This document shows, piece after piece, positions 8,288-27,600 of a stretch of DNA of 64,000 bases. Every line of letters begins with the position of its first letter. Within the stretch, counting starts at the first letter, position 1. Location of the stretch: positions 1 to 64,000 of the IMG/VR virus record IMGVR_UViG_3300020464_000002, one strand, 5' to 3'. The stretch is from a virus. Below the pieces are notes generated by a model, which saw only the letters and a list, made by a program, of their open reading frames with translations, made no database searches and was not told where the DNA came from. The translations under genes were made by a program, and so were the position numbers.

Positions 8288-11200
8288 ATGGCATACACCA
8301 AACAGAATAAAGCGCACAGCAATCACTATATCACCAAGCCTGACGGCTCAACCGCCAGTCGGTACAGCCGTTATGAGACTGGACGTATCACAGGCCGCTA
8401 TCGTGAAATACCAGCCGTTCTAGCGGACAGCACAGGCTTTGACAGCCTAGGCTTTGATAGCAGCGTTGGCAGCGTTGATGACCGCTGGCACGTTGTTAAC
8501 GTTTTTGACTCAGTAAATACTTATATTGATAGCATTGCCGTTGGCGGCGCGATGGACGGCAACCACGCCTTGCAAATCGCCAAGTCACAGCTAGACAGCT
8601 TGGGCGGCACTACTTGCCAGCTAATCACCAACAACGCCATGCAGTTTGACGGTATGGATCACGACCACGCATGGTCGATTGATGCCATTAATAAGCTGAT
8701 GGATAACCCCTCGCAAAACAAGAGCTACCTACCAGTAATCACCGCGCCTGAATTGGTCGTTGAGGCTGAGCGCGTCACGTTTGATAGCGTGCAGTGGGAT
8801 AGTAACAACAACCTAATCAGCCATGGCGGTAAAGACAGCCGCTTGTATCTTGATCTTACCCGCGCTGATACCCGAAACGAGCTTGTCACTGAGTTTGACT
8901 TGGCAGACGCGTTATTTGACATGGACGCACAGGAAGCGGGTTTTGATGCGTTGATGGACACAAAAAGTCGCTTACCTCTACTAAAAGATCGTTTATTTAA
9001 AGCGCTTAGCCAAGCAGGTGATGAAAGTCTATCTGTAACCAATGTAACGCAAACCAAAGAATTTAAGCGCCAAGGTGTGATTAATATCGCGTTTGTCTTT
9101 GATTTGTCAGACGGCCAAAAGCTGTCTATTTGGTTCCACAAGCCGCTAGAGTCCTCATCCAAACTACTACCAAGCGACTACATGGTGTCGTGGAAGTGGA
9201 TGTTGAATAAGCGCGATGTAACCGCCGCATTATCACCAAAACACGGCGATAACGTGCAGTTGCCAGCGCTGGCACGCCGTATCATGCGTGTGGCCGCTAA
9301 GAACTCTAAACGCTTTAAAGCCGCGCAAGCACGCAAGGCCAAGGTTGAGCAAGAGTTATTGGATGCAGAACAAGCAATCGAAGATAAAAAAGCCACGATC
9401 AGTCAATTAGACGCTGATATTGCTGATATTAACGCTAAAATTGATGCTGCTATGAAAGCGCCCGACTCAGACACAGTTAATGAGTCAGGCTTGCAAGCTG
9501 ACGAGCCAGCGGACGCGCCAGTAAGTACGACAGCGGCGACCGCCATCCCCGTAAGAGAAGCGCTTGAATACGTCAAAGCGAATATCTTTGAAGGCAAAGA
9601 TGATCAAGTCTTAATGTATGTCACCGATAGAAGTACCGGTGAGATCAAAGAAACTAAGCTAGTGAAGGCGTCGAGCAAATCAGCGCAAACGCGATGGTCA
9701 AACAATTTTGTCAATGATGATACGACTGGCTCAGTCTATAACCAGTCAATCCCTAAAACCAATAGCAACGCCGCCACCTTACTTGAAGACCTAGGGTACA
9801 AGATTAATTATGCCGATCCTGAAGGTTTCATTGATGATCAATTCAAAGTTGGTGACGCTTACCGCTTTATTGATCCTAACGACGCTAATGACACGGGCAG
9901 TGTCTTAGAGTTTAAGAGCTGGGAGGGTATCAACAGAGGTAACGACGAGCCGATACTATCATTTTCATCGTTTAGCGGCGCAAGTGGCAAGAGCTTTAAG
10001 CTTAGCGAGATGCAAAAACTTGTTGCTGACGGTGCGGCGGTACTGGTAACAGACTCAGAAGCGCAAGAAGCCAAGGATTTTGAAACCGAGCAGCCGGTAT
10101 CGGTGTATGTGAACAGTAAAGGCCGTGAATTGGTAACAGTGACGTACAGTCATGGTCAATACAATCTTAAAGGCAGTGGCTTTATGAATGGCGCTGACGA
10201 TGAAGCGGGCGTGTTAAAGATTTTGCGATCTATAAGAAAAGACAATAAATCCATGAAGTTGAAAGAGGGTAAAGAATTTTTCCCCGCGGGCGATGACGGT
10301 AAAGAATATCCGCCGCTTGAGTATGACGCCGAAAGCAAAACAGTTACCGCTTACATGAATAGTAAGAAAAAAGATAGCTGGACGGCCATACCTAAAGACG
10401 ATGGCGGCTTTACCGTGTACGCCGATAACGCCCAAACTCGCGCCTACAGAACCAGCGCACCGAAAATGTTTGATAACAGCGAAGATCTCATTGCCACTTA
10501 CCCCGCGTTTAGAGGTATCGACGCATTATTGGCCAAGCATAGCACTAGCAGCGATGACGTAGACTACGCGGAGATCGATGAAAGCGAGTACCCTGAATTA
10601 TTCCTAGATCGCAACAGCGATAAGCTAAATATTTTAGGTATCGGCGATGACAATATTCATGTAGGCAACCAAAACCACGGCGAGGACAGCTATAGCGATC
10701 TATACCATATCGACACCGGTATCTTTAAAGATATGACACTAAACTTTACGGATGCCGTGTGTAAGGTAGTCGATGCTTCCATCGATATAGGTGCTGATGC
10801 GGTTGTCGGTGACTATACAGCAACAGCTTATCAAGATTCAATGTTCGATGACCTTAACAGCAAATCCAACCCCACTTACGGTATCACCGTGCAGATCTCA
10901 AAAGATGGTGCTTACTTGCGCGCCGAAGTCGATGCTTATGGTGAAGCTAAGATCTTAAAAGGCATGAGTGGCCAAGACGTTGTTGCAACCGTAAAACACG
11001 TATTTACCGATAATACCGGCGAATACAAAACAGCGATTGAAAACGCATTAGACGCACAGGCGGATCAAGATATGGACGATAAAAAAGCAGATGACGATAT
11101 GAGTACAACAGACACGCATGATGTACCTAACACAGCTGAGACAGCGCCAGCAGCCAATATTAGCAACTCAGGCATTCCCGACATAACCAATGCAGATAAA

Positions 11201-12472
11201 AGCAATGCCTTGGAATATGGAGAAAAGCTACTTGATTTTGCAAGGGCTAGCTGGGTTCCGTCTAAATCCTATGATGATATTGATGAGTGGACTAGCGAAG
11301 AACAGACGGCGGCGTACAGAAAAGAGAAAGAGTTAGTAGAAGCAGAGTTTAAAGAAGTTATCCGTCTTTTTGGTGTTCTAAAGCAGTACCGAGCCTATAA
11401 AAAGGATCAACAAGAGATTCAAGAAATGGCAAATCTAGCAAACAGAGCTTACCTAAGCGGCTGGCGTGGCAATCCGAGTAAAGGAAGTGAGATGAATCGG
11501 TTTTTCTCAGCTGTTGACAGAAGAAAACAAATGGAAATTTACAACGAAACAAAGGAGTGGAATGCTGTTAGTGAAGATCATGTATTCCCACCAGTCGAAA
11601 AGATAGGCGATGACGAGTACAGAGCTTATCGAGATAGCGATAAAAAAGATCATTGGACAGCCAAACACGTTAGAAGTGGAGATTGGGAGGTTGTTATTGA
11701 TACTGAGCGATCAAGAAATATAAAAGGCGTTAGTACATTAAGACTTTTTAACAGCATTGATGACATTATCAATGAATACCCAGCATTCAAGGGCGTTAAA
11801 GAAATTATTGCAGGCAATGATAAAACTAAAAAAGATGACACGCTGGATGATCCCGATGCGTTATTTGCTGCATTTTTTAATGAGTTTTACGATGAGGTTA
11901 TGAATAGTCAGCGTCCAAAAATACAAGGTCTGCGATTGTCAGCCAATGCGGTAGATGGAACCAATATATCTTTTGAGTCTGGAAATGGTAAGTCTTACAA
12001 AATCTTAGGATCAGAGTACAACCCTTCAGGTAAAAACGTAAACCTTAATTTGATTGAAGTTAAAGCCAACGGCGCAGGTTACACCTCTCAAAACTCTATG
12101 ATATCGATTGTTGCTAGTACCAAAGTGACAAAAAATTCAGACTGGATGGAGTCATTGCGATCTAAGAAAGAGTGGCTCATATCAGAAGTTTTTGACGTAC
12201 TAGACATAGATTACCAAGAAAAAAACAAAGCCGACACAGTAGCGGAGCCAGCCACCAGCGCCGCCGCTAAGCGTATTAACGAGATCGAGCAGCAAATGAG
12301 CGCCGCTGATTTTGACCCGATGACCGTTGATACTGACGAGCTAATCGACTTGGTAGATCAGGTCGAGGGCGATGTGGAGCTTAGCGCCAAGCTAGACTAT
12401 CTCAGCACGACCCTGCAGCAAAAAATAGTTGCCGTCAGCATGAAAGCCCTTACCGATATGGCTGGCGCGTAA
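8288..12472 (+). CDS. giant (1394 aa) putative virion cargo / polyvalent-type protein
   Basis: Uninterrupted 4.2-kb ORF with a coiled-coil segment, acidic low-complexity stretches and an internally duplicated module (KKDxWTA...YPAF(R/K)G). No enzymatic motif recognised. Confidence 0.55.
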   Translation: MAYTKQNKAHSNHYITKPDGSTASRYSRYETGRITGRYREIPAVLADSTGFDSLGFDSSVGSVDDRWHVVNVFDSVNTYIDSIAVGGAMDGNHALQIAKSQLDSLGGTTCQLITNNAMQFDGMDHDHAWSIDAINKLMDNPSQNKSYLPVITAPELVVEAERVTFDSVQWDSNNNLISHGGKDSRLYLDLTRADTRNELVTEFDLADALFDMDAQEAGFDALMDTKSRLPLLKDRLFKALSQAGDESLSVTNVTQTKEFKRQGVINIAFVFDLSDGQKLSIWFHKPLESSSKLLPSDYMVSWKWMLNKRDVTAALSPKHGDNVQLPALARRIMRVAAKNSKRFKAAQARKAKVEQELLDAEQAIEDKKATISQLDADIADINAKIDAAMKAPDSDTVNESGLQADEPADAPVSTTAATAIPVREALEYVKANIFEGKDDQVLMYVTDRSTGEIKETKLVKASSKSAQTRWSNNFVNDDTTGSVYNQSIPKTNSNAATLLEDLGYKINYADPEGFIDDQFKVGDAYRFIDPNDANDTGSVLEFKSWEGINRGNDEPILSFSSFSGASGKSFKLSEMQKLVADGAAVLVTDSEAQEAKDFETEQPVSVYVNSKGRELVTVTYSHGQYNLKGSGFMNGADDEAGVLKILRSIRKDNKSMKLKEGKEFFPAGDDGKEYPPLEYDAESKTVTAYMNSKKKDSWTAIPKDDGGFTVYADNAQTRAYRTSAPKMFDNSEDLIATYPAFRGIDALLAKHSTSSDDVDYAEIDESEYPELFLDRNSDKLNILGIGDDNIHVGNQNHGEDSYSDLYHIDTGIFKDMTLNFTDAVCKVVDASIDIGADAVVGDYTATAYQDSMFDDLNSKSNPTYGITVQISKDGAYLRAEVDAYGEAKILKGMSGQDVVATVKHVFTDNTGEYKTAIENALDAQADQDMDDKKADDDMSTTDTHDVPNTAETAPAANISNSGIPDITNADKSNALEYGEKLLDFARASWVPSKSYDDIDEWTSEEQTAAYRKEKELVEAEFKEVIRLFGVLKQYRAYKKDQQEIQEMANLANRAYLSGWRGNPSKGSEMNRFFSAVDRRKQMEIYNETKEWNAVSEDHVFPPVEKIGDDEYRAYRDSDKKDHWTAKHVRSGDWEVVIDTERSRNIKGVSTLRLFNSIDDIINEYPAFKGVKEIIAGNDKTKKDDTLDDPDALFAAFFNEFYDEVMNSQRPKIQGLRLSANAVDGTNISFESGNGKSYKILGSEYNPSGKNVNLNLIEVKANGAGYTSQNSMISIVASTKVTKNSDWMESLRSKKEWLISEVFDVLDIDYQEKNKADTVAEPATSAAAKRINEIEQQMSAADFDPMTVDTDELIDLVDQVEGDVELSAKLDYLSTTLQQKIVAVSMKALTDMAGA

Positions 12473-14811: not shown

Positions 14812-15209
14812 CCCTTATTAGCTATCTATTCAACTGGCACATAATCAATGGCGCAATGCCGTTTTTTGGGATATTAGCCAGCGCTTATATTCTTTTTAGC
14901 AGGAAGACTTGCACCGCCAACAAAGCCATATCTACAGCGCTATCATTGAGCATTATTCTATGGCTAATGCTGATATGGGCTGACTGGGGGAGCGCTGTTT
15001 TTACGCCGTCTTATCAAAGCATGTGGGCGCGAATACTGTTATTGATCGTGTCCACACTCATCATGTTTGAGTTACGCCGAAATACGATAAACAACCAAAA
15101 ATTAAACCGCGCCAATGCCAGTATTATAAAGGAAAACCAACGCCTCAATACGATCAACCAGCTACTACACCAAAAGATTAACCAACAACAAGGATTAAAC
15201 AATGAGTAA
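14808..15209 (+). CDS. lysis-cassette membrane protein (second holin/antiholin-like)
   Basis: 133-aa ORF with three hydrophobic segments then a polar Q/N-rich tail. Overlaps both neighbours. Confidence 0.4.
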   Translation: MTLISYLFNWHIINGAMPFFGILASAYILFSRKTCTANKAISTALSLSIILWLMLIWADWGSAVFTPSYQSMWARILLLIVSTLIMFELRRNTINNQKLNRANASIIKENQRLNTINQLLHQKINQQQGLNNE

Positions 15210-15783
15210 GTATTTAACCAAACCTCAAATCGTGGCCGCCGCCAATGATCTTGACGTGGAATATGCGGCGCTAAAATCCGTGCTTGAAGTGGAGTGCCGT
15301 AGTAGCGGTTTTTTCAGCACAGGCGAACCCGCGATCTTGTTTGAGCGCCACGTTTATTGGCGGCGTTTAGGTGATATCTACTGGTACACCAAGCGCTTGC
15401 AGATCATGGCCAAACACCCACGCGTCTGTAATAAGTTTAGCGGCGGCTATGGCAAGTTTAGCGAACAGCACGACAAGCTAGCGATTGCAGCCAGTTACAA
15501 CCGTGACGTGGCGTTAGAGTCTGCTAGCTGGGGTATCGGTCAGGTCATGGGCTATCACTGGGAGAAACTGGGCTATCCATCGCTACAGGCGTTTATCAAT
15601 GATATGTATGAAAGCGAAGCCAAGCAGCTAGAAGCCGTGGTTCGTTATATCAAACACTTCAATCTTGATGGGGCTTTACGCCGTAAAGACTGGGCGGCGT
15701 TCGCTTATGGTTATAATGGCAAGGATTACGCCAAAAACAACTATGACGAGAAGCTAAAACAGGCTTACCGCAAGTACGCATAG
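15202..15783 (+). CDS. endolysin, N-acetylmuramidase family (PF11860-like)
   Basis: Motifs ILFERHVYWR, SASWGIGQVMG and FAYGYNGKDYAKNNYDEKL match my memory of the phage muramidase family. Sits after holin-like genes. Confidence 0.65.
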   Translation: MSKYLTKPQIVAAANDLDVEYAALKSVLEVECRSSGFFSTGEPAILFERHVYWRRLGDIYWYTKRLQIMAKHPRVCNKFSGGYGKFSEQHDKLAIAASYNRDVALESASWGIGQVMGYHWEKLGYPSLQAFINDMYESEAKQLEAVVRYIKHFNLDGALRRKDWAAFAYGYNGKDYAKNNYDEKLKQAYRKYA

Positions 15784-15792
15784 GGGCTAACC

Positions 15793-18279
15793 GTGGACAT
15801 TAAAGACAATCTTAGCAAGATCAAGGAGTTGCAGAAAGCCACCGCCGAAGTACAGGCGGCGGCCAATGCTGTGAGTCGTATCAAAGCCAGCCAGCGCCTA
15901 ATTGAGCTTTTAAAGAGTATGGGCGTTTATGATCAAAACCAACATGACATTATAGGCGAAGAAGATGAAGCGGACGACGAATACAGCGACAACACTAATG
16001 ATGAAAATTACCGTTATGCTGATACTGGTTATATCGCTGGGAGTCATAAAGAAAAGGCTGCTAAACGCATTAAAGAGCTAGCCAAAGATGGCCATACCGT
16101 CAAAGATACCGATATCGAATGGGATGAGATCGAAGCGGACGCCTTGTTTGCTGAGGACGTAATCAAAAAGGCTAATATCTTAGGTGATATCGACTATCAA
16201 GCCATGAAAGACGCGGGCGGCGATGCTGGCACGGCGTTTATCATTCAAAAAGTATTTGCTTCTATTGCGCCAAAGCCGCATTGGGATATTCTCGAATTTT
16301 TTGAAAAAAGCAATACAGGTAAACGCATGATACGGCCGGTTAGTCACGGCGATCGTGAGCGTATCTATAAAGACATTGAAAGTAATGTCGCTGAGCGGCA
16401 AAAGCTGGCACGTAAAGCCTATGTTACTGGGATCAATACCCTAAAAGATCGCATTATCGGTATCACTGATATCAAGTCATTGGTGGCCGAGCTAAAAGAG
16501 ATTGCTGAAGAAATGGGCGGCACTAAAGTCAGTGCTGAGGACGCCAAACGTTATAAAGAATTAGATCAAAAACTAGCAGACGCTTTATCTTCCATGAAAG
16601 AGCGATCCGCTAAGTTTGAAGCCGAGTACAAAGCCGCTGAATCTAAAGCGGCGGACGAAATGGATATGCCAAAGAGCACTAAGCGGCGCGGCACGGCCAT
16701 TCCCGATTATTATGACGGCAAGTTTAAGCCATTGGTAACAAAAAGCGCCTATTACCACCGCCGCCAGTCTATGAAAAGGTGGCTTGCTGACAAATACCCC
16801 GATATCGGCTTCTCAGGGTTAGAAAATAGAAACTTCCCCGCCGTAACAACCGTTAAAAGTATTATGGCCTATAAGAATCTATTAGATGAATTTGATCTTA
16901 TGACGTTGCAAGCTGGATTAAGCGGCCTTCGAGATCCAAACGCTAACCTTGCATGGGTGTCACTTGGCGAACGCTTTTGGAATATCATCGAGTTTACGTC
17001 AGGATCTTTTGTTAAACACGCCAACATGGCGCTAAACAAGCGTTATGACGACTGGGCTTTAACCATCAATGAGGGCGGCGCTGGCAAAGGCGGCGCTAAA
17101 AAAGGCAAGACCAAAACCACGTTTGAATTGGTGGTTGCTGACAAGATCGAGAGAAAGGGCGGGCGTGAGGTCAACGTAAGATCGACTGAAGAGTTAAAAG
17201 ATATGTTCGGCTTCCGTGATATCCAGTCCGGTAACTGGGTGCTCAAAGACAAGGCTGTCGCTAAATTTCACGTTGAAAATGCGGCGGCGGCCATGATGGA
17301 TCTATCCGACGTGGTAGGGATTGATGCCAAGTCGCTAGCGTTTGGCGGCCGTTTGGCGCTGGCACTGGGCGCGCGGGGTAAAAAAGGCGCAATGGCTCAT
17401 TATGAACCGGTTGCGCGCGTGATCAACTTGAGCAAGATGAAGGGCGGCGGTGCACTTGGCCATGAGTGGTTTCACGCTATCGACAACATATTGGCCGAGG
17501 TGATGGACGTTGACGGCGGCACTAGCGCTGGCTTGTTTTTAAGTAAGGATTCATCCATTTTAGGCGATAGCCCAATAAATGCCGCGTTCAATAAGCTACG
17601 ATCAGCGATGCTAGAGGGTGATATTCGAGCACCTGAATCGTTTGAGATCACAGAGTCTCTTGTTAGAGCCGCTAAGCTAAACCTACCTGACGGCGATTAT
17701 TTAGGCAAGTTACAAAGAGTCATTAAGGACAACGATGCCACGCAAGCGGTGATCGAGGTTGATAGAATATTGACGCGTAGTAATGGCGGCAAGCGCAGCA
17801 AAAATCACAAAACATGGCGTAGAATAGCCGCTGCCTATCACAACCAAGACAAGATAGGCGAAACAATCACGCTAAACACTGGTGAACCGTCATCTAGTTT
17901 TTATGCTGAGTCAAAACGACTGGACGAGGGTAGATCTAAGCCGTACTGGTCAACCACGCTCGAAATGGCAGCGCGTGCGTTCCAAGCCTTTTTAGAAGAC
18001 AGCTTAAAGGCGCAGGATCGCCAAAACGACTATCTCAGTTACGGTGCTAACAATGCGCTATATAAAAACCATAACGCTTATCCCGATGGGGCGGAGCGTG
18101 AGAATATCAACGCCGTCTTCACTGAATTGTTTAAAGTAATCAAAGACGAACGTATTTTTGAAAACGCCATGGAAGATGAAGCCATGATGGATGCCATTTT
18201 TGGGGCAAAAAGTATCTTTTTTGACGAAGAACAGGCAGCCATTAACACGTTGTTTGGTGACAACGAGTATCACTGGTAA
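15793..18279 (+). CDS. 828-aa zincin-like (HExxH) polyvalent-type virion protein
   Basis: GTG start after AGGGG. HEWFH metallopeptidase-type motif (GGALGHEWFHAIDN). Coiled-coil and K/E-rich regions. Ends at terminator 18322-18346. Confidence 0.5.
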   Translation: MDIKDNLSKIKELQKATAEVQAAANAVSRIKASQRLIELLKSMGVYDQNQHDIIGEEDEADDEYSDNTNDENYRYADTGYIAGSHKEKAAKRIKELAKDGHTVKDTDIEWDEIEADALFAEDVIKKANILGDIDYQAMKDAGGDAGTAFIIQKVFASIAPKPHWDILEFFEKSNTGKRMIRPVSHGDRERIYKDIESNVAERQKLARKAYVTGINTLKDRIIGITDIKSLVAELKEIAEEMGGTKVSAEDAKRYKELDQKLADALSSMKERSAKFEAEYKAAESKAADEMDMPKSTKRRGTAIPDYYDGKFKPLVTKSAYYHRRQSMKRWLADKYPDIGFSGLENRNFPAVTTVKSIMAYKNLLDEFDLMTLQAGLSGLRDPNANLAWVSLGERFWNIIEFTSGSFVKHANMALNKRYDDWALTINEGGAGKGGAKKGKTKTTFELVVADKIERKGGREVNVRSTEELKDMFGFRDIQSGNWVLKDKAVAKFHVENAAAAMMDLSDVVGIDAKSLAFGGRLALALGARGKKGAMAHYEPVARVINLSKMKGGGALGHEWFHAIDNILAEVMDVDGGTSAGLFLSKDSSILGDSPINAAFNKLRSAMLEGDIRAPESFEITESLVRAAKLNLPDGDYLGKLQRVIKDNDATQAVIEVDRILTRSNGGKRSKNHKTWRRIAAAYHNQDKIGETITLNTGEPSSSFYAESKRLDEGRSKPYWSTTLEMAARAFQAFLEDSLKAQDRQNDYLSYGANNALYKNHNAYPDGAERENINAVFTELFKVIKDERIFENAMEDEAMMDAIFGAKSIFFDEEQAAINTLFGDNEYHW

Positions 18280-18321
18280 GTTTAAAAAACGGCAGCCTAG
18301 CCAGCGTTTAGCGCTAACCAA

Positions 18322-18346
18322 CCCCGCCAAAAATGGCGGGGTTTTT
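18322..18346 (+). terminator. intrinsic terminator
   Basis: CCCCGCC aaaaat GGCGGGG followed by TTTTT. Confidence 0.75.
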
Positions 18347-18349
18347 CAT

Positions 18350-18426
18350 TGGAACAGTGTAAAAGTTGCTAGCCGTTTACTTGTCATAATTGGTTATTGC
18401 TTTTTATAACCAATCGGACAGCATTT
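18350..18426 (+). promoter_or_regulatory. late-promoter unit J
   Basis: Box TGGAACAGTGTAAAAG 18350-18365. TGn plus CATAAT 18385-18390. IR ATTGGTTAT/ATAACCAAT 18389-18397/18406-18414. ATG 18427. Confidence 0.6.
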
Positions 18427-21400
18427 ATGAAAACAGATCAAACGCCGTCAGGCACTAAAGCCAAGTTTAAAAACATTGCCGACCTACAAGCCGCGCTTGC
18501 CAAGTTGCAAGGCGCAACCAACACAAAAGACCGACTAGCCGCCACACAAGGCGTTGTCGATGTTTTGAAAAGAATTGGATCGCTGAGATCGATAACCATT
18601 CAAGAGGCCAAAAACGGCAAACTTGATGACGATCATGACACGCCAGCACCAGCCGCCGAAAAAACGCCAACCAGTGATATTGTTGATCGTACTGGCATGG
18701 TTGAGCTGGCGGGAACCAGTAAGCGCCAAGCAGCCAATAATAAAGCGGTCGAACTTTTGGCCAAAATCAAGGCCGAGGGCTTAACCCGCGATGATCTATC
18801 ATCTGAGCAGATCGAAACGCTGGCGGCCTATACTGGCAGCGGCGGCGGCCTGATCTCAAACAAGGGTAAACGCGGTAGCGCTTACGAGTATTACACCCCC
18901 AAAGCCGTTGCCTCAAAAATGTGGGAATTGGCCTCAGAAATGGGCTTTACTGGCGGCAAGGTACTAGATCCGAGCGCTGGTACTGGCGTTTTTGCGGCCA
19001 CCAGCCCTGAAAGTGCCGTTATTGACAGTATCGAGCTTGACGAAGTATCAGGCGGCATTGCCTCGATCTTAAACGATGGGGATCGCAGCAATACGGTTGT
19101 ATCGTCTTTTGAGAAGCGCAACGAGCTGATCGCAGATGATAGTCTCGATATGGTAATGACAAACGTGCCTTTTGGCGACAATAAAACACGCGGCGAGCAC
19201 AAAATGGACGATGACGCGTACCAAAATGAGAGCTTAGAGACTTACTTTATCTTGCGTTCGCTTGAAAAGATTAAGCACGGCGGCCTTGCCGTATTTATCA
19301 CGCCAACGTCTGTGATCTCAGGCAAAAAAGGCGACAAGGAACGCTTGCGCAAATTGACCAGCCTAAAAGCTGAGCTGCTGGGCGCGTACCGCTTACCAAA
19401 CAAAGTATTTGAACAGACAGGCGCGGACGTAATGACGGATATCATTGTTTATCGCAAGCATAGCCGTGAAGCGACCGATCAAATCAACGCGCTGTATGAA
19501 GCTGGCGATATGGACACGTTGGCCAAAACCAAGGTCATGTGGGATGAATATATCAGCGGCGCTTATTTTAAAAACCCAATCCATAAAGCTAAATTCATGT
19601 TGGGTAACGAAGTGCAAGTACCAAGCCGTTTTAACCCCGAAGAAATGGTAACGGCGCTAAGCAACCCCAAACCAACGCCTGAGATCATGAAAGACATTAA
19701 AAAGTTTGGCGGTAGTCGTATTGATTGGGAAGCACTGGGCGCAGCTGAGGCCGCTTATATCGAATACAACAACGGTGACGTGATATTCCAAAACGGCAAG
19801 CAATTAGAGTACCAAGACGGCCGCTGGCACGTTATGGCCGCCGAGCCGACCGACAGTGACCGTGAAATGCAGAAGGCACTTGCTAACATGGGCAGTGCGA
19901 TCGAAATGGTTGTAGCTGGCATGACGTTTGACATGATGGATCGTGTGAACAGCTACACCTTAACGACTGGCCAAGCCGATTTAATCCCGCGTGCTGCTAG
20001 ATCTTTGTTTAATCGAACCCTCGTTGTCGCCCCTAAAATGCGTGCCGCCGCGTGGAATTGCGTTATCGCAGCACAAGCGATAAAAGACGTGATCGCCGAG
20101 CAAGATTATGGCTATGACTTCATGACCAACGAGCCGGCCTTGACCAGCTTTATGAAAACCGCCTTTTTGGACGGCAAAAATACCAAGCTGACCAAAGAAC
20201 CAAAGCAAGACTTTAATTTTGTCAAACTCTACTACGATAATGGCAAGTATAACGCGGTATGGCGCGGCCAAATTGATACCGAGGTCGAAGTTAAGGACGA
20301 GGCGCGATCTTATACAAGCCTTATTGCACGTATGCAGTATGACAATAAGAGCCTATATTTAAGCCGTGAGCAGTTGGCCAAAGTTAACCCCGATACTGAC
20401 CCATTAACCGATAATGAGTGGTTTATCAATCATGACGGCAGCCAAGTTATCGCCGCTAGTGACTTTTTGACTGGCAGCTTATCGAATTGTTTGGCCAAGA
20501 TTGACGAGCAGATCAAACAAGCGACCGACAGCAAGATCATTGCCAAGCTAGAACAGCAAAAACTATTTGCGACTGAAAACGTAACACGTATCAACTTGCA
20601 AAGCGTGGACTTTGACTTGCGCAGCCCACTAATCAGCGCCGAGGACAAAGTACGCTTTTTAAAGCAGTCAGTGCACAAAGACGCGTATATCTCGTTTGAT
20701 GAGTACGGCAAGGGCACGCCTGATATTGACGTAAAAGGCGGCAATCTAAGGGATGAAGAAAAGCTGTATAACCGTATCGGTGACTGGTTGGCTAAGGGAA
20801 CCGTGACCACTGGCGGCGTGACACTTAGCAGAATGACCGAGCGTGAAGCGCTGGACTGGATGAGCGAGCAAATTAACGTTGCTAACGTCAAATTTAGCAG
20901 CTGGGTTAAAGCCAACGACAAGCTAATGGCCAGCCTTGAGCGCACCATAAACCATAACGACAACCTATTTTTTAGCCAAAACAGTGATGAATCACCAGTC
21001 GAAATCGCTGGCATGAACCCTCAACTCAAGTTGCATGGCTATCAAAACGCGTTTGTGCGCAGCCAAGGCCGACATTTTGGCGGGATTAACGGCATGGGCG
21101 TTGGACTTGGTAAGACGTTTTCGTCATTGTCCAGCACGCAACATGCGCATAATATTGGCGCTAAGAAAAAAACTATTTTTGTTGTGCCAAATAGCGTGCT
21201 GTCAAACTGGCGTAAAGAGGTCGATTTTGCCTATACCAGCACTGATGACTGTTTGTTTGTTGGCTTGCGTGAAAAGGGCGACCAATTCCGCGTCTATTCC
21301 AACAAGTATGATGAAGATCTACTAAAAGCGGTCGATAGCAAGTACCGTAAGATTTTTATGACTTATGAAGCGTTTAAGCGTATTAGATTGAAAGATGAGA

Positions 21401-24400
21401 CTATAGCGGACTATGCAAGGTACGTTAAACAAAACGATTCAGCCTACGCTAATAAAGACTTGCAAAAAGCCAATGAAAAAGCCAAGGGCATGATTGCTGA
21501 GTTAATCGATCGCCTATCGATGGACACCAACGCGCCATTTTTAGAAGACATGCGCGTTGATAGCGTGGTGATCGATGAAGCCCATGCGTTCAAAAACTCA
21601 ATCAGTGCGCCCAATACAGACAACCGTATTAAGTACCTATCACAGCCCCAAGAGTCAGCACGCGGTGAGGACGCACAGGCTAAGTTATTTTACATACGCG
21701 GCCTGACCCCAGCCAATGACGGCGTGCAGCTGCTAACAGCAACACCTATCACCAACAGCCCCTTGGAGATCTACTCTATGCTATCGCTGGCTGGCGGTCG
21801 TGACACAGTAAATAAAATGTGTGGCGGTATTGTGGGTGCAGACGACTTTTTGGCCGTTATGTGCCAAATTGAAGAAGAAGTCGTACCAACGATTGACGGC
21901 AAGACGCGCTCACAAAACGTTTTTACTGGCATTAGAAACGCGCAGATCTTGAAAAAAGCGGTACGAGCCAATGCCGTGATCAAGGACGCGCAAGACGTTG
22001 GCATGTCGGTTGTTATTCCCGAACGTGAAGAATTGGCAACCTCGGTCAATTTAGGCAAAGAGATTGACGGCCAGTTAAGAGAATTACAAGATGCGTATGT
22101 GGTAGCGCGTCAGATCGAGGCTGAAAAGCTGGACAATGAATTAAAAGACCCAACCCATCCACAAAGCCCATACAATCCAAAAAGCCCTTATAGCATTGTT
22201 GCTGGCAAGTACGGTGAAACCAACGATCTAATAGCACACCCATTCAACCTGATCCGTAAGATGGACGTAATGATTGCCGATGCTGAGTTTAGCGAGGGTG
22301 TGACGTTTTATGACTTTGACGAAAACCAACAGGCGATCGCTGAAAAGGTAGTGAACCAATTTAGCAACGGTAGAAAAAAACACACTGATGAACGTTCGCG
22401 CCCTAGCGCATACACTGCTGAGGAAGACGCTAAACCGATCTATAAGAAAGAAGACGGCGAACAGGTGCTAAAGGGTTATAAAATCGCTTGCAAGGCTAGA
22501 ATTGTTATCCACAAAGGCCGTTCACGTATTATGATTGACACAATCGAGAGCAAGTTTCAATCCAGTTTTGAGGCTATGGCCGATAAAGCCAAGCTAAATC
22601 TTGATGTTGCCGTGTCTGCTAAAGTTGCGGCCTTGCTTGAAAACTTTAAAAACGAACAGGCCAACCCGCGTGGGATCAGTAACGACAATACAACCAGCAA
22701 GATCGTTAAGCAGATCATCTTCTGTGATCACTTATTTTTGCATAACAAGATCAAGCGTGTTTTAATCAAACGCGCTGGCGTGCCAGCTAACAAGATCGTC
22801 ATCATTACAGGACAGACAAATAACGATCCTGACAAAATGATCGATATTCAAGACGGTTTTAACGCGTTTGGTGCAGATAATCAGTATCAAGTGGTTATTG
22901 CTAACAAGAAAGCTGAGGTCGGTATCAACTTGCAACGTGGTACGCAAGCAATCCATCATTTAACGACTGGCTGGACACCCGACAGCTTAGAGCAGCGCAA
23001 CGGACGCGGCGCACGCCAAGGCAACAAGACAGAGAGGGTTAAGATTTTTCATTATGACGCGGACGGCACGTTTGATGAGTTTAAACGCACCATGATCGAC
23101 AAAAAGGATGAGTGGATCACCAGCGTGTTATCAGATGAAGACACGAACACGATTGAGGTATCAGGCAGTATCACCCGCGCTGAGCAAGACGCGCTTATTC
23201 GTTTGGGTGGTGATCGTGAGGCCATGCGTGCGTATCAAGCCGAGCGTGACGCACAAGAGGCGCAAGCGCGTAAGGAAGCCGCTATCAAGCGTCATAAAGT
23301 CAATATGCAAGTCGTTGATGAGCAAACCAAGATTGTTAAAAAGCTCAAGATAGATGATTTTTATGAGAACGCTGTAAAAGAAGTCGTTAACCTCATTAAA
23401 GATAATAACGTTGTCTATAAGAAAATACACGCTAACAAAAGCAGCGCCAGCACCAAAGCAAACAGCACCAAGCGTTACAATGCCACCAAGTCGGTTATCC
23501 TCGATAAGATCGAAGAAATTTTTGATAACGTGAAATCACAGGCGGTAAATAGTAATTGGGTAGCAATAGAGAGTATCAGTCCTTATCGCGCCACTATTAG
23601 CGCTGAGGATGCCTATGATATCGTGCAAAACAACTTAGGTCGCGGCGAAAATTTTGCTAATGATAATAGTGGATCATGGGCGGTGCATTTTGCTCGTAAG
23701 ATTTTAACCCATGGCGCTAATTTTGATAGATCCAAAACTATTATCAACAGCGATGGTATTTATCAAGCCACGTATGATGAGATCAACACAACGGCTAGAA
23801 ACCTCATTAAGCAAGCGCTACTAGCAGCAAATGAGTTGGCCGATCGTGCTGGCTTGGCTGGCATGACGATACCTGACGATGCAGGTAATTTAATTGCTGA
23901 CGGTAAAGCGGTTATTCATGATGGTTTTTTCTTTATGGCTGGCTCGATTGCAATTAGCGATCAGTGGTCGCCAGTTAGAAAAGAGGACTTTTTATTTGCA
24001 ATTAACGATAAATTGAGAGGCCACGCACTAACAAGCCGCGTAGATACAAGGGGCGTAACCGTTTATCAAAGCCCCGAAAGCTCACCTCAAGGCATAAAAG
24101 CAAAAGCAGTTATTCATCCAAACACGCCTGAATACCTAGAATACGTTAAGGCTATGGCTAAGATTGAAGATGAGCACTACGGCGCAGGGCAGTTAAGCGA
24201 AGCCGTTTACAGTAATATCATTCCTCAAGTTGCCGAATATAGAGATAATAGTATTCAACCGTTGTGGCATTTAAGCCCTAATTTAGCTGGCCGTCAGGTT
24301 GGCTTATCAAATTGCGACTTCTTGGTGATGTTGCCTTATGAGGTTTTGGCCGCTGGCACGCCGTTTGCGAATAAAATGCTAAGCGACTATAGCGCCGCTG

Positions 24401-25113
24401 GCATTAGTATTGATCTTGATAGCAAAACTTATCAAGCGACTAACGACAAAGTGCAAATTAACGCCGATCAATACGATACGCAAATGATCCACGATCTTTA
24501 TTACAGTTATGTTGGTTTAATGATTAAGCATAGCGGCGTTAAGTTAACCGCTGACGATAAAGCGCTAATGGGGCAACCTCAGATTATAGCTGAGCTATTA
24601 AAGGAACCAGCTGATCAGTTGATAACCGCGCTTAGAGCCGCCGCCGACAGCATTACCGAGCGCCAAAGCAATCGAGTGTTAGAAGATATGGTCGTTAAAT
24701 TGTTTGATGATCTTATTTATAGCGATGAATATATGAGCGATGAGCCAACAGCCGATATGAAGATTTATACGCTAGAATATGTTTATGACGAACACTTAAA
24801 CCGTCAAAATGTTTTAGATGCCGTGGACTTCTTACGGACTGAGAGCAGCAAAAACATTGCTGAGGCTAAAGTTAAGGCGATGGGCTTAGAGGCAAGCGCC
24901 GCTGGTATAAAAGACAGCGACACGGTTTACGTTAGCGGTGATACCCAAACGTACTATAAAACTATCAAGGCATACGGCAATAAAAACGGTGAGAAAGCAA
25001 GATATCAAGGCAATAAATACCAGTCGTGGGCGATGAGTTTTAGAGCCTACAAAGAAATGATAACCGCTAGACCTGAATTGGCTAATCTTTTACCTATGAG
25101 CAAAACACGATAA
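18427..25113 (+). CDS. DarB-like giant protein: N6-adenine methyltransferase plus SNF2-type helicase plus long uncharacterised C-terminus
   Basis: MTase motif I VLDPSAGTGVF (about 18967-18993) and motif IV TNVPFG (about 19162-19176). Helicase motifs GMGVGLGKT (about 21101), VIDEAHAFKN (about 21574), LLTATPITNSPLEIYSML and QRNGRGARQGN. ATG 18427 is preferred over the track start 18397, which lies inside the hairpin. Confidence 0.7.
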   Translation: MKTDQTPSGTKAKFKNIADLQAALAKLQGATNTKDRLAATQGVVDVLKRIGSLRSITIQEAKNGKLDDDHDTPAPAAEKTPTSDIVDRTGMVELAGTSKRQAANNKAVELLAKIKAEGLTRDDLSSEQIETLAAYTGSGGGLISNKGKRGSAYEYYTPKAVASKMWELASEMGFTGGKVLDPSAGTGVFAATSPESAVIDSIELDEVSGGIASILNDGDRSNTVVSSFEKRNELIADDSLDMVMTNVPFGDNKTRGEHKMDDDAYQNESLETYFILRSLEKIKHGGLAVFITPTSVISGKKGDKERLRKLTSLKAELLGAYRLPNKVFEQTGADVMTDIIVYRKHSREATDQINALYEAGDMDTLAKTKVMWDEYISGAYFKNPIHKAKFMLGNEVQVPSRFNPEEMVTALSNPKPTPEIMKDIKKFGGSRIDWEALGAAEAAYIEYNNGDVIFQNGKQLEYQDGRWHVMAAEPTDSDREMQKALANMGSAIEMVVAGMTFDMMDRVNSYTLTTGQADLIPRAARSLFNRTLVVAPKMRAAAWNCVIAAQAIKDVIAEQDYGYDFMTNEPALTSFMKTAFLDGKNTKLTKEPKQDFNFVKLYYDNGKYNAVWRGQIDTEVEVKDEARSYTSLIARMQYDNKSLYLSREQLAKVNPDTDPLTDNEWFINHDGSQVIAASDFLTGSLSNCLAKIDEQIKQATDSKIIAKLEQQKLFATENVTRINLQSVDFDLRSPLISAEDKVRFLKQSVHKDAYISFDEYGKGTPDIDVKGGNLRDEEKLYNRIGDWLAKGTVTTGGVTLSRMTEREALDWMSEQINVANVKFSSWVKANDKLMASLERTINHNDNLFFSQNSDESPVEIAGMNPQLKLHGYQNAFVRSQGRHFGGINGMGVGLGKTFSSLSSTQHAHNIGAKKKTIFVVPNSVLSNWRKEVDFAYTSTDDCLFVGLREKGDQFRVYSNKYDEDLLKAVDSKYRKIFMTYEAFKRIRLKDETIADYARYVKQNDSAYANKDLQKANEKAKGMIAELIDRLSMDTNAPFLEDMRVDSVVIDEAHAFKNSISAPNTDNRIKYLSQPQESARGEDAQAKLFYIRGLTPANDGVQLLTATPITNSPLEIYSMLSLAGGRDTVNKMCGGIVGADDFLAVMCQIEEEVVPTIDGKTRSQNVFTGIRNAQILKKAVRANAVIKDAQDVGMSVVIPEREELATSVNLGKEIDGQLRELQDAYVVARQIEAEKLDNELKDPTHPQSPYNPKSPYSIVAGKYGETNDLIAHPFNLIRKMDVMIADAEFSEGVTFYDFDENQQAIAEKVVNQFSNGRKKHTDERSRPSAYTAEEDAKPIYKKEDGEQVLKGYKIACKARIVIHKGRSRIMIDTIESKFQSSFEAMADKAKLNLDVAVSAKVAALLENFKNEQANPRGISNDNTTSKIVKQIIFCDHLFLHNKIKRVLIKRAGVPANKIVIITGQTNNDPDKMIDIQDGFNAFGADNQYQVVIANKKAEVGINLQRGTQAIHHLTTGWTPDSLEQRNGRGARQGNKTERVKIFHYDADGTFDEFKRTMIDKKDEWITSVLSDEDTNTIEVSGSITRAEQDALIRLGGDREAMRAYQAERDAQEAQARKEAAIKRHKVNMQVVDEQTKIVKKLKIDDFYENAVKEVVNLIKDNNVVYKKIHANKSSASTKANSTKRYNATKSVILDKIEEIFDNVKSQAVNSNWVAIESISPYRATISAEDAYDIVQNNLGRGENFANDNSGSWAVHFARKILTHGANFDRSKTIINSDGIYQATYDEINTTARNLIKQALLAANELADRAGLAGMTIPDDAGNLIADGKAVIHDGFFFMAGSIAISDQWSPVRKEDFLFAINDKLRGHALTSRVDTRGVTVYQSPESSPQGIKAKAVIHPNTPEYLEYVKAMAKIEDEHYGAGQLSEAVYSNIIPQVAEYRDNSIQPLWHLSPNLAGRQVGLSNCDFLVMLPYEVLAAGTPFANKMLSDYSAAGISIDLDSKTYQATNDKVQINADQYDTQMIHDLYYSYVGLMIKHSGVKLTADDKALMGQPQIIAELLKEPADQLITALRAAADSITERQSNRVLEDMVVKLFDDLIYSDEYMSDEPTADMKIYTLEYVYDEHLNRQNVLDAVDFLRTESSKNIAEAKVKAMGLEASAAGIKDSDTVYVSGDTQTYYKTIKAYGNKNGEKARYQGNKYQSWAMSFRAYKEMITARPELANLLPMSKTR

Positions 25114-25122
25114 GGAATATTT

Positions 25123-25551
25123 ATGAATTATTTATATGATCCTGATTTTCTATCGAGAAAAACAGCGGCCACCAAAAGATCACTAGCAGAAAACCAGCCA
25201 AATGCAGACTTCGTTGAGTTTGCCGCTGGCGTGATCTATGATCGCCTTAAAAAGAACATACAGCGCTATAGAGTGTATGGGATGTACTGGTGGGCATTAA
25301 AGGACGTTCTAGCGCGTCAGGGCTACGATATGGGCGCAGAAACCGATGATGATATGGCTGCCTTGTATAAGGGCGCTGACGATGCTGAAACATTAGTCGC
25401 AGCCGATCTGTTTTATCTTGATATGAGTAGTCAAAAGCCGGTTGATAATAATCGCTGGACGATCGACAACCGCCGCGATGATTATGTTTTGTATGATGCA
25501 GACATGGAAGAACGCAACAGAATTACCGACAGCTCATTTTTAGTAAAATAA
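25123..25551 (+). CDS. hypothetical protein
   Basis: 142-aa ORF with SD AAGGA, the last gene of the DarB-like operon. Confidence 0.5.
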   Translation: MNYLYDPDFLSRKTAATKRSLAENQPNADFVEFAAGVIYDRLKKNIQRYRVYGMYWWALKDVLARQGYDMGAETDDDMAALYKGADDAETLVAADLFYLDMSSQKPVDNNRWTIDNRRDDYVLYDADMEERNRITDSSFLVK

Positions 25552-25575
25552 GTTGCATAGTCATTTTGGTAGTTT

Positions 25576-25603
25576 TTGCGTAGCGCGAAAAAGGCGCTAT
25601 AAT
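25576..25603 (+). promoter_or_regulatory. sigma70-type promoter
   Basis: TTGCGT (25576-25581), 16-nt spacer, TATAAT (25598-25603). The spacer holds the IR TAGCGC/GCGCTA. Confidence 0.5.
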
Positions 25604-25609
25604 AAATTC

Positions 25610-25694
25610 ATAACGTAGGTTGCGTTATACTCACTCCATAGTATCTATTGTTATTTTACAGTAAGCAAAAGCCCATCCCAGTGATGGGCTTTTT
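25610..25694 (+). ncRNA. candidate small RNA (about 85 nt)
   Basis: Promoter above. 5' stem ATAACG/CGTTAT (25611-25616/25623-25628). U/A-rich single-stranded stretch. Intrinsic terminator GCCCATC ccagt GATGGGC TTTTT (25671-25694). No ORF with an SD inside. Confidence 0.35.
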
Positions 25695-25702
25695 GCTGTC
25701 TA

Positions 25703-25732
25703 ATGAACGCAAATTAACGCAAATGAACGCAA
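25703..25732 (+). repeat. three tandem decamers AT(G/T)AACGCAA (candidate integrase arm-type sites, P arm)
   Basis: ATGAACGCAA ATTAACGCAA ATGAACGCAA with exact 10-bp phasing. Confidence 0.5.
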
Positions 25733-25741
25733 GGACAGATT

Positions 25742-26158
25742 ATGAGTAGTGAAACGATATTAGATCAAGTTAGAGAAATGGTCATAAAAGTAACGGCAGC
25801 AAAAAAGATTGATGACGAGTATGAAGCATACAGGATGCAAGATCAGGGCGATAGTTGGGATCAAGTACGCGAGCAGTTAAGGGCTGGCTATGAAGTATCG
25901 CACCTTGTAATGAGCCACGATATTTATCAAAAAATATCTCAGGAATCGCTAGACAGGGCACTTAGAAACGAACCTAACCCGCATTTCTTTTGGGGCTTGG
26001 CAGTCGAAGTTGATACCAGTCTGCCTGATAGCACTTTTGGCGTAGTGCTCAAAAAAAGCGACATAGTAGAGCCTCGCAAACGGAATATGGTACAACACAT
26101 GATTAACACACATACAGCACACAGAACCATAAGTATGATTGATATGCCTTATATTTAA
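25742..26158 (+). CDS. hypothetical protein (moron inside the att region)
   Basis: 138-aa ORF with SD AAGGA. Bounded by terminator 25671-25694 and the att core and terminator downstream. Confidence 0.5.
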   Translation: MSSETILDQVREMVIKVTAAKKIDDEYEAYRMQDQGDSWDQVREQLRAGYEVSHLVMSHDIYQKISQESLDRALRNEPNPHFFWGLAVEVDTSLPDSTFGVVLKKSDIVEPRKRNMVQHMINTHTAHRTISMIDMPYI

Positions 26159-26180
26159 AGGCTTTGAGGGCAACTATAAG

Positions 26181-26199
26181 ACTCCCGCCATCTCCACCA
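26181..26199 (+). other. attP core: copy of the 3' end of a tmRNA (ssrA)/tRNA-Ala-like gene
   Basis: ACTCCCGCCATCTCCACCA reads as T-loop end, T-stem CCCGC, acceptor strand CATCTCC (compatible with G3-U70), discriminator A and CCA. It closely resembles the E. coli ssrA 3' end as I recall it. No matching 5' half of a T-arm lies upstream, so this is only a fragment. Confidence 0.6.
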
Positions 26200-26220
26200 C
26201 TTATAAACAAGCAACAATAA

Positions 26221-26244
26221 ACATCAACGAACATCAACGAACAT
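26221..26244 (+). repeat. tandem decamers ACATCAACGA x2 (+ACAT), candidate arm-type sites
   Basis: A perfect direct repeat immediately 3' of the att core. Confidence 0.5.
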
Positions 26245-26254
26245 TATTTACCCT

Positions 26255-26290
26255 AAACCCCTTACAGCTTATGGCTTTAAGGGGTTTTTT
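26255..26290 (+). terminator. intrinsic terminator downstream of att core
   Basis: AAACCCCTTA ... TAAGGGGTTT stem followed by T6. It would terminate the reconstituted ssrA-like gene in a lysogen. Confidence 0.65.
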
Positions 26291-26304
26291 AATGCCTAAA
26301 ACAG

Positions 26305-26350
26305 ACATTAACGAACACTAACGAACATTGACAAGCATCAACAAACATCG
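26305..26350 (+). repeat. four to five degenerate tandem decamers (ACATTAACGA ACACTAACGA ACATTGACAA GCATCAACAA ACATCG), candidate arm-type sites (P' arm)
   Basis: 10-bp phasing. Shares ATNAACGNA with the repeats at 25703 and 26221. Lies just upstream of int. Confidence 0.5.
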
Positions 26351-26399
26351 TAATAATGCACACAGAACACACACGGCCTTACACACAGGAATTGCAACT

Positions 26400-27563
26400 A
26401 TGATCACTAAAGACAGTCAGGTTAAGTCTTTAAAACCTAAAGAAAAAAGGTACACTAATGCCGCTGGTGACGGCTTGTTCCTTGATGTTATGCCAACTGG
26501 TAAGAAATCATGGACGGTGGCGTACAGCAAGAACGGTAAACGCACACGAACCAAGATAGGTACTTATCCAGTATTGTCATTAAAGGATGCACGCGTATTA
26601 GCTCAGGATCTACAACGTCAAGCATTGTTAGGTTATAGCGATATACTGATGAAAGATCTTGTTAAGGAATGGTTATCAGTTTATAGCCCTAACTGGACGA
26701 GTAAAAAATATGAAAAAAATGTAATTCATCGACTAGAATTGGTCACAGAGCGCATAGCTGACGTGAAAGCAAACGAGGTGACACGCTCGATGATCTCGGA
26801 TGAGATAGGGCTAATTGTAGGCAGGGGTACGATAGAAACGGCCAATCGTTGCTTGCGGCTTATTAAAACCGTCTTTGATTATGCCGTAGCTAAAGAGTAT
26901 GTTGAGACCAACCCATGCACATTGGTTAGCAAGATGATACCCGCTAGAAAGGTCGTTAATATGGCCTCATTGCCGATCAGCGAAATGCCTAAATTTTGGA
27001 CAGCGCTTAACTATATGGACATGGCTTATGAAACTAAGCAAGCAATAGCGCTTTATAATTATCTTGCTTGCCGACCAAGTGAGCTGGTAAAGGCGCGATG
27101 GGATACTGGTGAGTTTGACTTAGATAAGGGTGTTTGGATTATCCCAAAACACCGTATGAAAATGCGGCTTGAGCACATGATACCGCTAACCGAAAAACCA
27201 TTACAGATACTCAGAGATCTATACGATCGCCGCATTGATGATGAGTTTGTTTTTAAGAAAAAAAATAAGCCTTGGGAACACATGCCAACAGAAACGCCGC
27301 TGGCAGCGGTAAAGCGAGCTGCTGGTAATGGTAAGATGACAACACATGGTTTTAGATCGCTACTATCAACCAATGCGAACGAGGCCAAACTAGCGGACGG
27401 CACGCGCATGTTTCATGAAGACATTATTGAGCGTCATTTAGCACACGTACCGCATAATAAAGGCCGCGCCGCTTATAATCGCGCTAAATACTGGAATGAC
27501 AGGGTAAGGTTGATGGAATGGTGGGCGGCGATTGTTACGCCATGGATTGAACCTGAATCTTGA
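26400..27563 (+). CDS. int: tyrosine integrase, P4-type (DUF4102 N-terminus)
   Basis: N-terminus MITKDSQVKSLKPKEKRYTNAAGDGLFLDVMPTGKKSW. C-terminal HGFRS, HLAH and the catalytic-Tyr region GRAAYNRAKY. ATG 26400 is preferred over the track start 26328, which lies inside the decamer repeats. Confidence 0.85.
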   Translation: MITKDSQVKSLKPKEKRYTNAAGDGLFLDVMPTGKKSWTVAYSKNGKRTRTKIGTYPVLSLKDARVLAQDLQRQALLGYSDILMKDLVKEWLSVYSPNWTSKKYEKNVIHRLELVTERIADVKANEVTRSMISDEIGLIVGRGTIETANRCLRLIKTVFDYAVAKEYVETNPCTLVSKMIPARKVVNMASLPISEMPKFWTALNYMDMAYETKQAIALYNYLACRPSELVKARWDTGEFDLDKGVWIIPKHRMKMRLEHMIPLTEKPLQILRDLYDRRIDDEFVFKKKNKPWEHMPTETPLAAVKRAAGNGKMTTHGFRSLLSTNANEAKLADGTRMFHEDIIERHLAHVPHNKGRAAYNRAKYWNDRVRLMEWWAAIVTPWIEPES

Positions 27564-27570
27564 TCAAAAA

Positions 27571-27600
27571 AAATAGGGTATGCACTGCATACCCCTATTT
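27571..27600. terminator. bidirectional terminator between convergent int and xis-like genes
   Basis: ATAGGGTAT gcactgc ATACCCCTAT stem, flanked by A8 upstream and TTT downstream. Stronger in the leftward direction. Confidence 0.65.

Follow-up and report, generated by a model that had tools for sequence, protein, structure and literature searches.

Among the components of the classic antirestriction system of phage P1, DarB is the largest. The DNA analyzed here, hereafter called the window, comprises positions 1 to 64,000 of the IMG/VR virus record IMGVR_UViG_3300020464_000002, and it carries at 18427-25113 on the forward strand a darB-like gene whose 3' part is richer in A and T than the remainder. 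This locus raises the question of where the C-terminal part of the encoded protein came from. A previous inspection of the letters, without database searches (the sequence-only reading), had proposed a DarB-like methyltransferase and SNF2 helicase ending in a swapped module. The explanation that best accounts for the results as a whole, and which we hold with good confidence, is that the product of the open reading frame (ORF) is an antirestriction protein of the DarB type from a temperate, P1-like myovirus, with an ancestral, fast-evolving C-terminal module.

Relationship to DarB of phage P1

The mechanically called ORF extends from 18397 to 25113 on the forward strand, and the ATG at 18427 gives a protein of 2,228 amino acids (aa; 18427..25113, stop codon included). 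The claimed ORF is real, and its length from this start equals that of the closest relatives in the databases (P0003, P0004 and P0005), which are also 2,228 aa long. All six motifs that had been quoted were located in the translation: DPSAGTGVF at aa 181 (motif I, 18967-18993), NVPFG at aa 246 (motif IV, 19162-19176), GLGKT at aa 893, DEAH at aa 1050, TATPITNSPLE at aa 1104 and QRNGRGARQGN at aa 1523. Motif I precedes motif IV ((N/D)xP(F/Y)), which is the arrangement of gamma-class N6-adenine methyltransferases (MTases). Pfam assigned an Eco57I-type methylase to aa 226-304 with an expect value (E) of 1.1e-5, over the cut-off, and placed SNF2-rel_dom (E 6.7e-10), ResIII and Helicase_C between aa 809 and 1532; the Helicase_C match (E 8.8e-5, 23.2 bits) is slightly under the cut-off of 23.5 bits. 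The SWI2/SNF2-type superfamily 2 (SF2) helicase is positioned C-terminal to the MTase, as the DarB-type dyad requires.

From these assignments the protein can be divided into a variable N-terminal region of ~100 aa (18427..18726, + strand), with a mean identity to the family of ~16% and a nonsynonymous-to-synonymous rate ratio (dN/dS) of 0.27-0.43; a putative LPD36-like helical segment with the gamma-class MTase domain (18727..19566, +; Pfam, motifs and PMC5512222); the SNF2-type SF2 helicase/translocase (20851..23049, +; its four motifs and Pfam); and the C-terminal module. The LPD36-like segment is assigned by motif only, with YTGSGGG and YYTP in columns that are almost invariant across the family. 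In some DarB-like relatives (P0029, P0036-P0042, P0076, P0095 and P0114), additional NUDIX and LPD3 domains are present at the N-terminus, or inteins (Intein_splicing, LAGLIDADG_3, PT-HINT) are inserted in the protein; the window protein has none of these.

The DarB-like assignment is well supported by PHROG matches, by alignment to P1 DarB and by the conserved order of darB and ulx. The family phrog_11801 was matched with E=0 over aa 31-1657 of the window protein, which covers only positions 36-1586 of the 2,269 in that profile, and phrog_10089 ('DarB-like antirestriction') was matched with E 2.4e-76. A tblastn search of 50,697 phage records found the DarB proteins of P1, P7, D6 and SJ46 at ~29% identity over aa 100-1568 (E about 1e-58). 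The direct alignment to P1 DarB, which the sequence-only reading had named as a check, was run by BLASTP and was significant over the enzymatic core, with 33.6% identity at aa 100-520 (E 5.6e-48) and 26.7% at aa 814-1620 (E 2.4e-65). P1 DarB (YP_006479) has 2,255 aa compared with 2,228 aa in the window protein; it also carries NVPFG, GLGKT and QRNGR, and it shares the domain order of N-terminal extension, putative LPD36-like segment, gamma-class N6-adenine MTase and SNF2-type helicase. However, the helicase box is DEAH in the window protein and DEGH in P1 DarB, and the identity in the core is no higher than 27-34%. The order proposed for the window protein, LPD36-MTase-SWI2/SNF2, is described in the section on the polyvalent 'DNA methylase-helicase dyad' by Iyer et al. 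2017 (PMC5512222), where the dyad has a late-gene phage context with LPD1 and DarA_N neighbors, as in the window. That section names no domain beyond the helicase, where the window protein has its C-terminal module, and none of the Pfam families recorded for the relatives covers this module. Seen as a feature of the genome, the gene itself is an ordinary member of the known DarB-type family.

The best tblastn match was Xanthomonas phage Rb1, with 42% identity in the core over aa 98-1600. Rb1 gp58 (XPA09466, 2,238 aa, annotated as 'chromatin remodeling complex ATPase') has the same full-length architecture as the window protein. Its C-terminus (aa 1653-2232) is out of reach of single-sequence tblastn with the window protein, but it matches the C-terminal hidden Markov model (HMM) with E 1.4e-146. 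Rb1 also has an 'internal head protein' gene upstream, and a 141-aa gene directly downstream that we liken to ulx by position only.

The C-terminal third showed no match between the profile of this clade and P1 DarB in either hhalign or hmmsearch, and the profile-profile comparison with a P1-type C-terminal alignment was negative (probability 0.7%). Bordetella phage PHB04 also gave no match to the clade C-terminal profile, and the P1-type C-terminus was found only among close enterobacterial relatives. Given that the C-terminal third of P1 DarB is not detectably homologous, the DarB family as a whole carries different C-terminal modules. We also considered PF28555, which is recorded for many relatives, as the C-terminal family, and rejected it, since variants of P1 DarB with internal deletions locate it to ~aa 960-1245 of that protein, in the helicase region. 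Many Escherichia coli and Salmonella entries (P0261-P0298) are such variants with large internal in-frame deletions, for example of aa 1370-1735, 1748-2005 or 928-2051, and truncation of darB seems to be common in resident P1-like plasmids.

History of the C-terminal module

The clade has an ancestral module of its own in the C-terminal ~590-650 residues, which is vertically co-inherited with the core and less constrained, and was not recently imported. The sequence-only reading put about 900 residues after the helicase, which is an overestimate: the last helicase motif ends at aa 1533 and 695 residues remain, the first ~100 of them highly conserved, so that the divergent part comprises ~590 aa from aa ~1640. 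We divide the module into part 1 (aa 1581-1810; 23167..23856, +), a long-helix bundle or stalk whose first ~60 aa are conserved, and part 2 (aa 1811-2228; 23857..25110, +), a folded alpha/beta and helical region with a small alpha/beta domain at the end. Identity to every relative falls abruptly at aa ~1600-1650, from 75-94% to 35-54% in the case of P0005. In comparison with the related locus L002, the N-terminal part of DarB, Ulx and the integrase are 77%, 78% and 78% identical, respectively, whereas the C-terminal part of DarB gives only a local match of 35%.

Despite this divergence, the module is homologous throughout the clade. We compared the profile of the close (Psychrobacter-type) C-termini with that of a distant subgroup (Burkholderia, Halomonas, Nitrosomonas and others), which was built without the window sequence, and hhalign aligned the two over 552 columns with a probability of 100% (E 7.5e-58). 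An exhaustive profile search of 1.84 billion representatives found 145 clusters with the C-terminal module, and in every full-length match the module is the C-terminal end of a DarB-like protein of ~2,100-2,300 aa. End-to-end matches to the C-terminal profile of ~580-626 positions were found in 149 long proteins. A word-indexed protein search with the C-terminus alone returned 2 proteins only, which marks the sensitivity limit of that method; full-length and profile searches recover the family. We also asked whether proteins of 70-137 aa, which match only the last ~80 profile positions, might be stand-alone homologues, and set them aside, as they look like contig-truncated ORF fragments; one of them was matched by eye to the tail of a full-length protein. 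The module is thus common to a broad clade that includes Psychrobacter, Xanthomonas phage Rb1, Burkholderia, Halomonas and Nitrosomonas.

The two parts of the protein have also diverged together. Across all ~5,800 family pairs, the identity of the C-terminus correlates with that of the core (Spearman 0.87). Pairs at 75-80% core identity have a C-terminal identity of 38-61%, and the pair formed by the window protein and P0005, with 79% in the core and 45% in the C-terminus, lies on the family trend. We then calculated dN/dS and the nonsynonymous rate (dN) by the pairwise Nei-Gojobori method. In the core, dN/dS is 0.085 against P0004 and 0.074 against P0005, for which the synonymous rate (dS) is saturated; in the C-terminus the corresponding values are 0.15 and 0.22. 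Against P0005, dN is 0.148 in the core and 0.497 in the C-terminus, so that the nonsynonymous rate of the C-terminus is 3.4-fold that of the core. These values show purifying selection on the C-terminal module, although of a relaxed kind.

The gene does recombine, given that synonymous divergence is mosaic among close relatives. Along darB, dS against L007 and L008, which are 94-97% identical, varies more than 10-fold, from 0.02 at codons 1601-2000 to 0.36 at codons 401-600, which indicates that tracts of the gene were exchanged recently by homologous recombination. However, a tract nearly identical to P0003 extends from about nucleotide (nt) 22930 to 24430 and spans the module boundary, and no cassette breakpoint at that boundary was found in the close relatives.

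The base composition of the 3' part was examined in the same context. The AT-richer end from about 23340 that had been noticed by eye is borne out by calculation, with a G+C content (GC) of 47.6% at 18427-23339 and 42.3% at 23340-25113; at third codon positions (GC3) the values are 52.6% before 23340 and 42.0% after. The composition scan that had been suggested also showed that the gene is not uniform: an unbiased scan placed the best GC3 changepoint at codon 1695 (23512, +; z=4.8), a value reached in 0 of 5,000 codon permutations (p<0.0002). With this changepoint, GC3 declines from 52.6% to 40.7%. By contrast, GC at codon positions 1 and 2 is 44.6% before and 43.7% after, and amino-acid composition is nearly unchanged. 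The shift is therefore one of synonymous codon usage and not of protein composition, and the description of the C-terminus as different in composition holds for third codon positions but hardly for amino acids. The C-terminal GC3 (0.42) is within the gene-to-gene range of the window (mean 0.48, standard deviation 0.057). Most late and structural genes of the window have GC3 values of 0.49-0.57, which the core of the ORF resembles, and most accessory and early genes have values of 0.36-0.45, which its tail resembles. The genome as a whole consists of two compositional domains, the lower-GC3 one being the block of ulx, int and early-regulatory genes at about 25.1-42 kb, in which most genes have values of 0.36-0.45. 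The GC3 dip was present in all six Psychrobacter-lineage genes examined (that of the window and five relatives; 6.6-11.8 points, z 2.7-4.9), including genes whose C-termini are only 30-45% identical to that of the window, and was absent in the genes of Rb1 and P1. The lower GC3 is thus a lineage-wide property of a less constrained segment, and not a sign of recent foreign origin.

The locus and its phage

The gene directly downstream of the darB-like ORF (25123..25551, +) is Ulx-like (phrog_1629, E 1.7e-23; 34% identity to P1 Ulx, E 1e-11), and the same darB-ulx order was confirmed in P1. Upstream lie a gene for an 828-aa polyvalent-type protein with an LPD1 domain (15793..18279, +) and one for a 1,394-aa protein with a DarA_N domain (8288..12472, +; E 1.2e-25), both identified by domain scan, as well as genes for a PmgG-like protein and a muramidase. 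A hairpin resembling an intrinsic terminator (18320..18343, +; 10-bp stem with 7 G-C pairs, followed by a T-run) separates the LPD1 gene from the pair of darB-like and ulx-like genes. A tyrosine integrase is encoded at 26328..27563 (+), and the window also contains genes for portal, baseplate, terminase, tail fibre, sheath, RecT and a CI-like repressor. Therefore, the whole 64 kb is the genome of a temperate myovirus. Like P1, it is a myovirus with P1-like portal, PmgG-like and DarA_N proteins; unlike P1, which lives as a plasmid, it integrates via its tyrosine integrase. In addition, DarA_N is part of the 1,394-aa fusion protein in the window phage, which is not the case in P1.

The gene order of the darB-like locus is the same in five related loci. 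The relatives carry Psychrobacter names, and one of them is a prophage adjoining recC/recB in a Psychrobacter chromosome; the host of the window phage is probably Psychrobacter. In this chromosome (JBEFNJ010000001.1, locus L004), the darB-ulx-int block forms the prophage edge, and recC and a recB-like gene with UvrD/PDDEXK domains lie ~2 kb past the integrase, beyond two small ORFs. Nucleotide searches of phage and plasmid collections with the gene and its 25-kb flanks gave no match.

The 1,394-aa protein is a probable internal head or Dar companion protein. Domains ddrB-ParB and LPD3 are recorded in its homologues, and DarA-like and DdrB-like functions therefore appear to be fused, although the ddrB-ParB domain was not detected by domain scan in the window copy. 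The protein is also mosaic: its N-terminal ~390 aa and C-terminal ~70-140 aa are conserved, and its center matches some loci only.

The gap between the LPD1 and darB genes is a variable 'moron' site. The window has only the terminator there (18280-18426), the two closest relatives have a 129-aa ORF (L007, 5490-5879; L008, 5489-5878), L002 (7696-7851) and L004 (9089-9856) have a Tad2-like (anti-Thoeris-type) gene, and L003 (7549-7881) has a 110-aa ORF. The slot past ulx varies too. In the window (25552-26327) it holds a 138-aa ORF (25742-26158) that gave no family match and is 37% identical to its counterpart in L002, compared with 78% for the flanking ulx and int genes; L002 has an additional 74-aa gene of the Acb2/Tad1-hairpin type (15136-15360). 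The integrase ORF as listed has a TTG start and 411 aa, and those of the relatives have 381-405 aa with alignments beginning at about residue 12-29; translation probably begins further into the ORF. A bidirectional terminator-like hairpin (27575-27595) follows the integrase gene, and no tRNA gene was found near the integrase or anywhere else in the window.

Possible roles of the module

We predicted the structure of the module by AlphaFold2 with a 50-sequence alignment. The model of aa 1581-2228 has a predicted local distance difference test score (pLDDT) of 90.7 and a predicted template modeling score (pTM) of 0.70, and that of aa 1810-2228 has values of 92.1 and 0.80. The models show three parts: a long-helix bundle (about aa 1581-1810), a mixed beta and alpha/beta region, and a final small alpha/beta domain. 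Foldseek searches with the 648-aa model against PDB and BFVD, and with the 419-aa sub-model against PDB, gave no match with E<0.001, and the top matches above that threshold were generic helical bundles. Sequence and profile searches of PDB with the C-terminus were empty, and scans of the C-terminus and 15 family members against Pfam, PHROG and NCBIfam gave no consistent family. Among the columns in which at least 85% of 121 non-redundant sequences agree, most are G, A, P, L or W. The few conserved polar columns are Y1903, D1915, R1939, T2173 and K2181, and other conserved positions include A1911, G2171 and W2201. The globular part is acidic, with a net charge of -15 and an isoelectric point (pI) of 5.0, and the mean net charge in the family is -13.5. 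Because so few polar residues are conserved, the alignment suggests binding or scaffolding rather than catalysis. Most likely, the module mediates protein-protein contact with a variable partner, either in the capsid or with a host restriction complex.

It has been reported that P1 DarB is a head protein of ~250 kDa, the last to be loaded into the capsid by means of a 30-residue N-terminal signal, and that Ulx and DdrB assist its packaging (PMC9024508). P1 DarB is ejected along with the DNA, which it protects in cis against restriction of the EcoK/EcoB type (PMC12810830, PMC5512222), and in the section on the dyad the methylase-SNF2 pair is thought to translocate along incoming DNA and modify it (PMC5512222). 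By homology to P1, the DarB-like protein of the window would be made late and loaded into the procapsid, with the products of the downstream ulx-like gene and the upstream DarA_N-domain gene as helpers. The variable N-terminal ~100 aa, by analogy with the position of the P1 DarB signal (PMC9024508), would be the probable capsid-targeting region. The protein would then be ejected together with the DNA, and its SNF2-type motor and gamma-class N6-adenine MTase may act in cis on the incoming genome, blunting type I restriction, with the C-terminal module as a partner-binding element.

Several points weigh against this explanation. The proposed packaging, ejection, methylation and antirestriction are without exception carried over from P1, at ~29% identity. 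Since the C-terminus is not detectably homologous to that of P1, the module has no characterized counterpart. Ulx (65-78% identity) and other neighbors are far more conserved than the C-terminus, which argues against simple co-evolution with Ulx as the partner. An average dN/dS below 1 is also compatible with patches under positive selection. Finally, given the heterogeneous dS and the recombination within the gene, repeated exchange among relatives could be behind some of the family-wide pattern.

We also weighed four other explanations. Following the swapped module of the sequence-only reading, the last ~1.8 kb would have come recently from a foreign source of lower GC and been joined to a DarB core. 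The changepoint near nt 23512, the sharp drop in identity to every relative, the non-homologous C-terminus of P1 DarB, which implies that modules differed at some depth in the family, and the recombination within the gene all fit such an event. Nevertheless, it is largely refuted and very improbable, because the module is homologous and constant in position throughout the clade, its identity tracks that of the core, the GC3 dip recurs in relatives with very different C-terminal sequences, the tract shared with P0003 crosses the boundary, and GC at codon positions 1 and 2 does not change. One part of the idea survives, namely that C-terminal modules differ at the deeper level of P1 versus this clade. 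In another explanation, the gene would be part of a defence system of the host or of a prophage, such as DISARM DrmD-like or Dpd-like SNF2 proteins with a methylase, instead of antirestriction. The C-lobe of the helicase does match DrmD (E 1e-12) and DpdE (E 2e-10) weakly in NCBIfam, but these scores of 46.8 and 39.1 bits compare with equivalog cut-offs of 610 and 500, and the gene lies among late and structural genes beside the Ulx-like and DarA_N genes of a complete phage genome, with strong matches to DarB-like PHROG families. This explanation is disfavored and we give it almost no weight.

The other two explanations concern what the module binds. It might recognize or clamp DNA and thereby set the specificity or processivity of the MTase-translocase. 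Gamma-class MTases need a target-recognition domain (TRD), Pfam assigns none in the window protein, and specificity domains typically evolve fast. However, the module carries an overall acidic charge, which is uncommon among proteins that bind DNA, and is ~1,300 residues away from the MTase. The unassigned ~400 aa that separate MTase and helicase would accommodate a TRD more naturally, and Foldseek gave no match to the folds of TRDs or DNA-binding domains. We consider this role improbable. The module might instead be an arms-race interface that binds host defence proteins, for example type I restriction-modification complexes, or acts as a decoy, evolving under positive selection and setting which defences are neutralized. 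Its 3.4-fold faster nonsynonymous divergence inside an otherwise conserved block, its acidity, the scarcity of conserved polar residues and the different modules of P1 and this clade are all consistent with such an interface. On the other hand, pairwise dN/dS is 0.04-0.22, far under 1 although these are pairwise averages and not site-level values, and Foldseek found no structural likeness to known inhibitors or DNA mimics, so that we regard the arms race as rather unlikely.

The point worth following is that a well-folded, clade-restricted and structurally unmatched module of ~600 aa is attached to DarB enzymes. Our analysis provides its domain boundaries (aa ~1580/1640, ~1810 and 2228) and a shortlist of conserved residues for experiments. 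One speculation, which we put forward as doubtful, is that the C-terminal third of DarB is a specificity module with a new fold, exchangeable over deep time, that engages host defence complexes and sets which restriction systems are neutralized. If this speculation is true, then the P1-type and Rb1/Psychrobacter-type modules would be two solutions for different targets.

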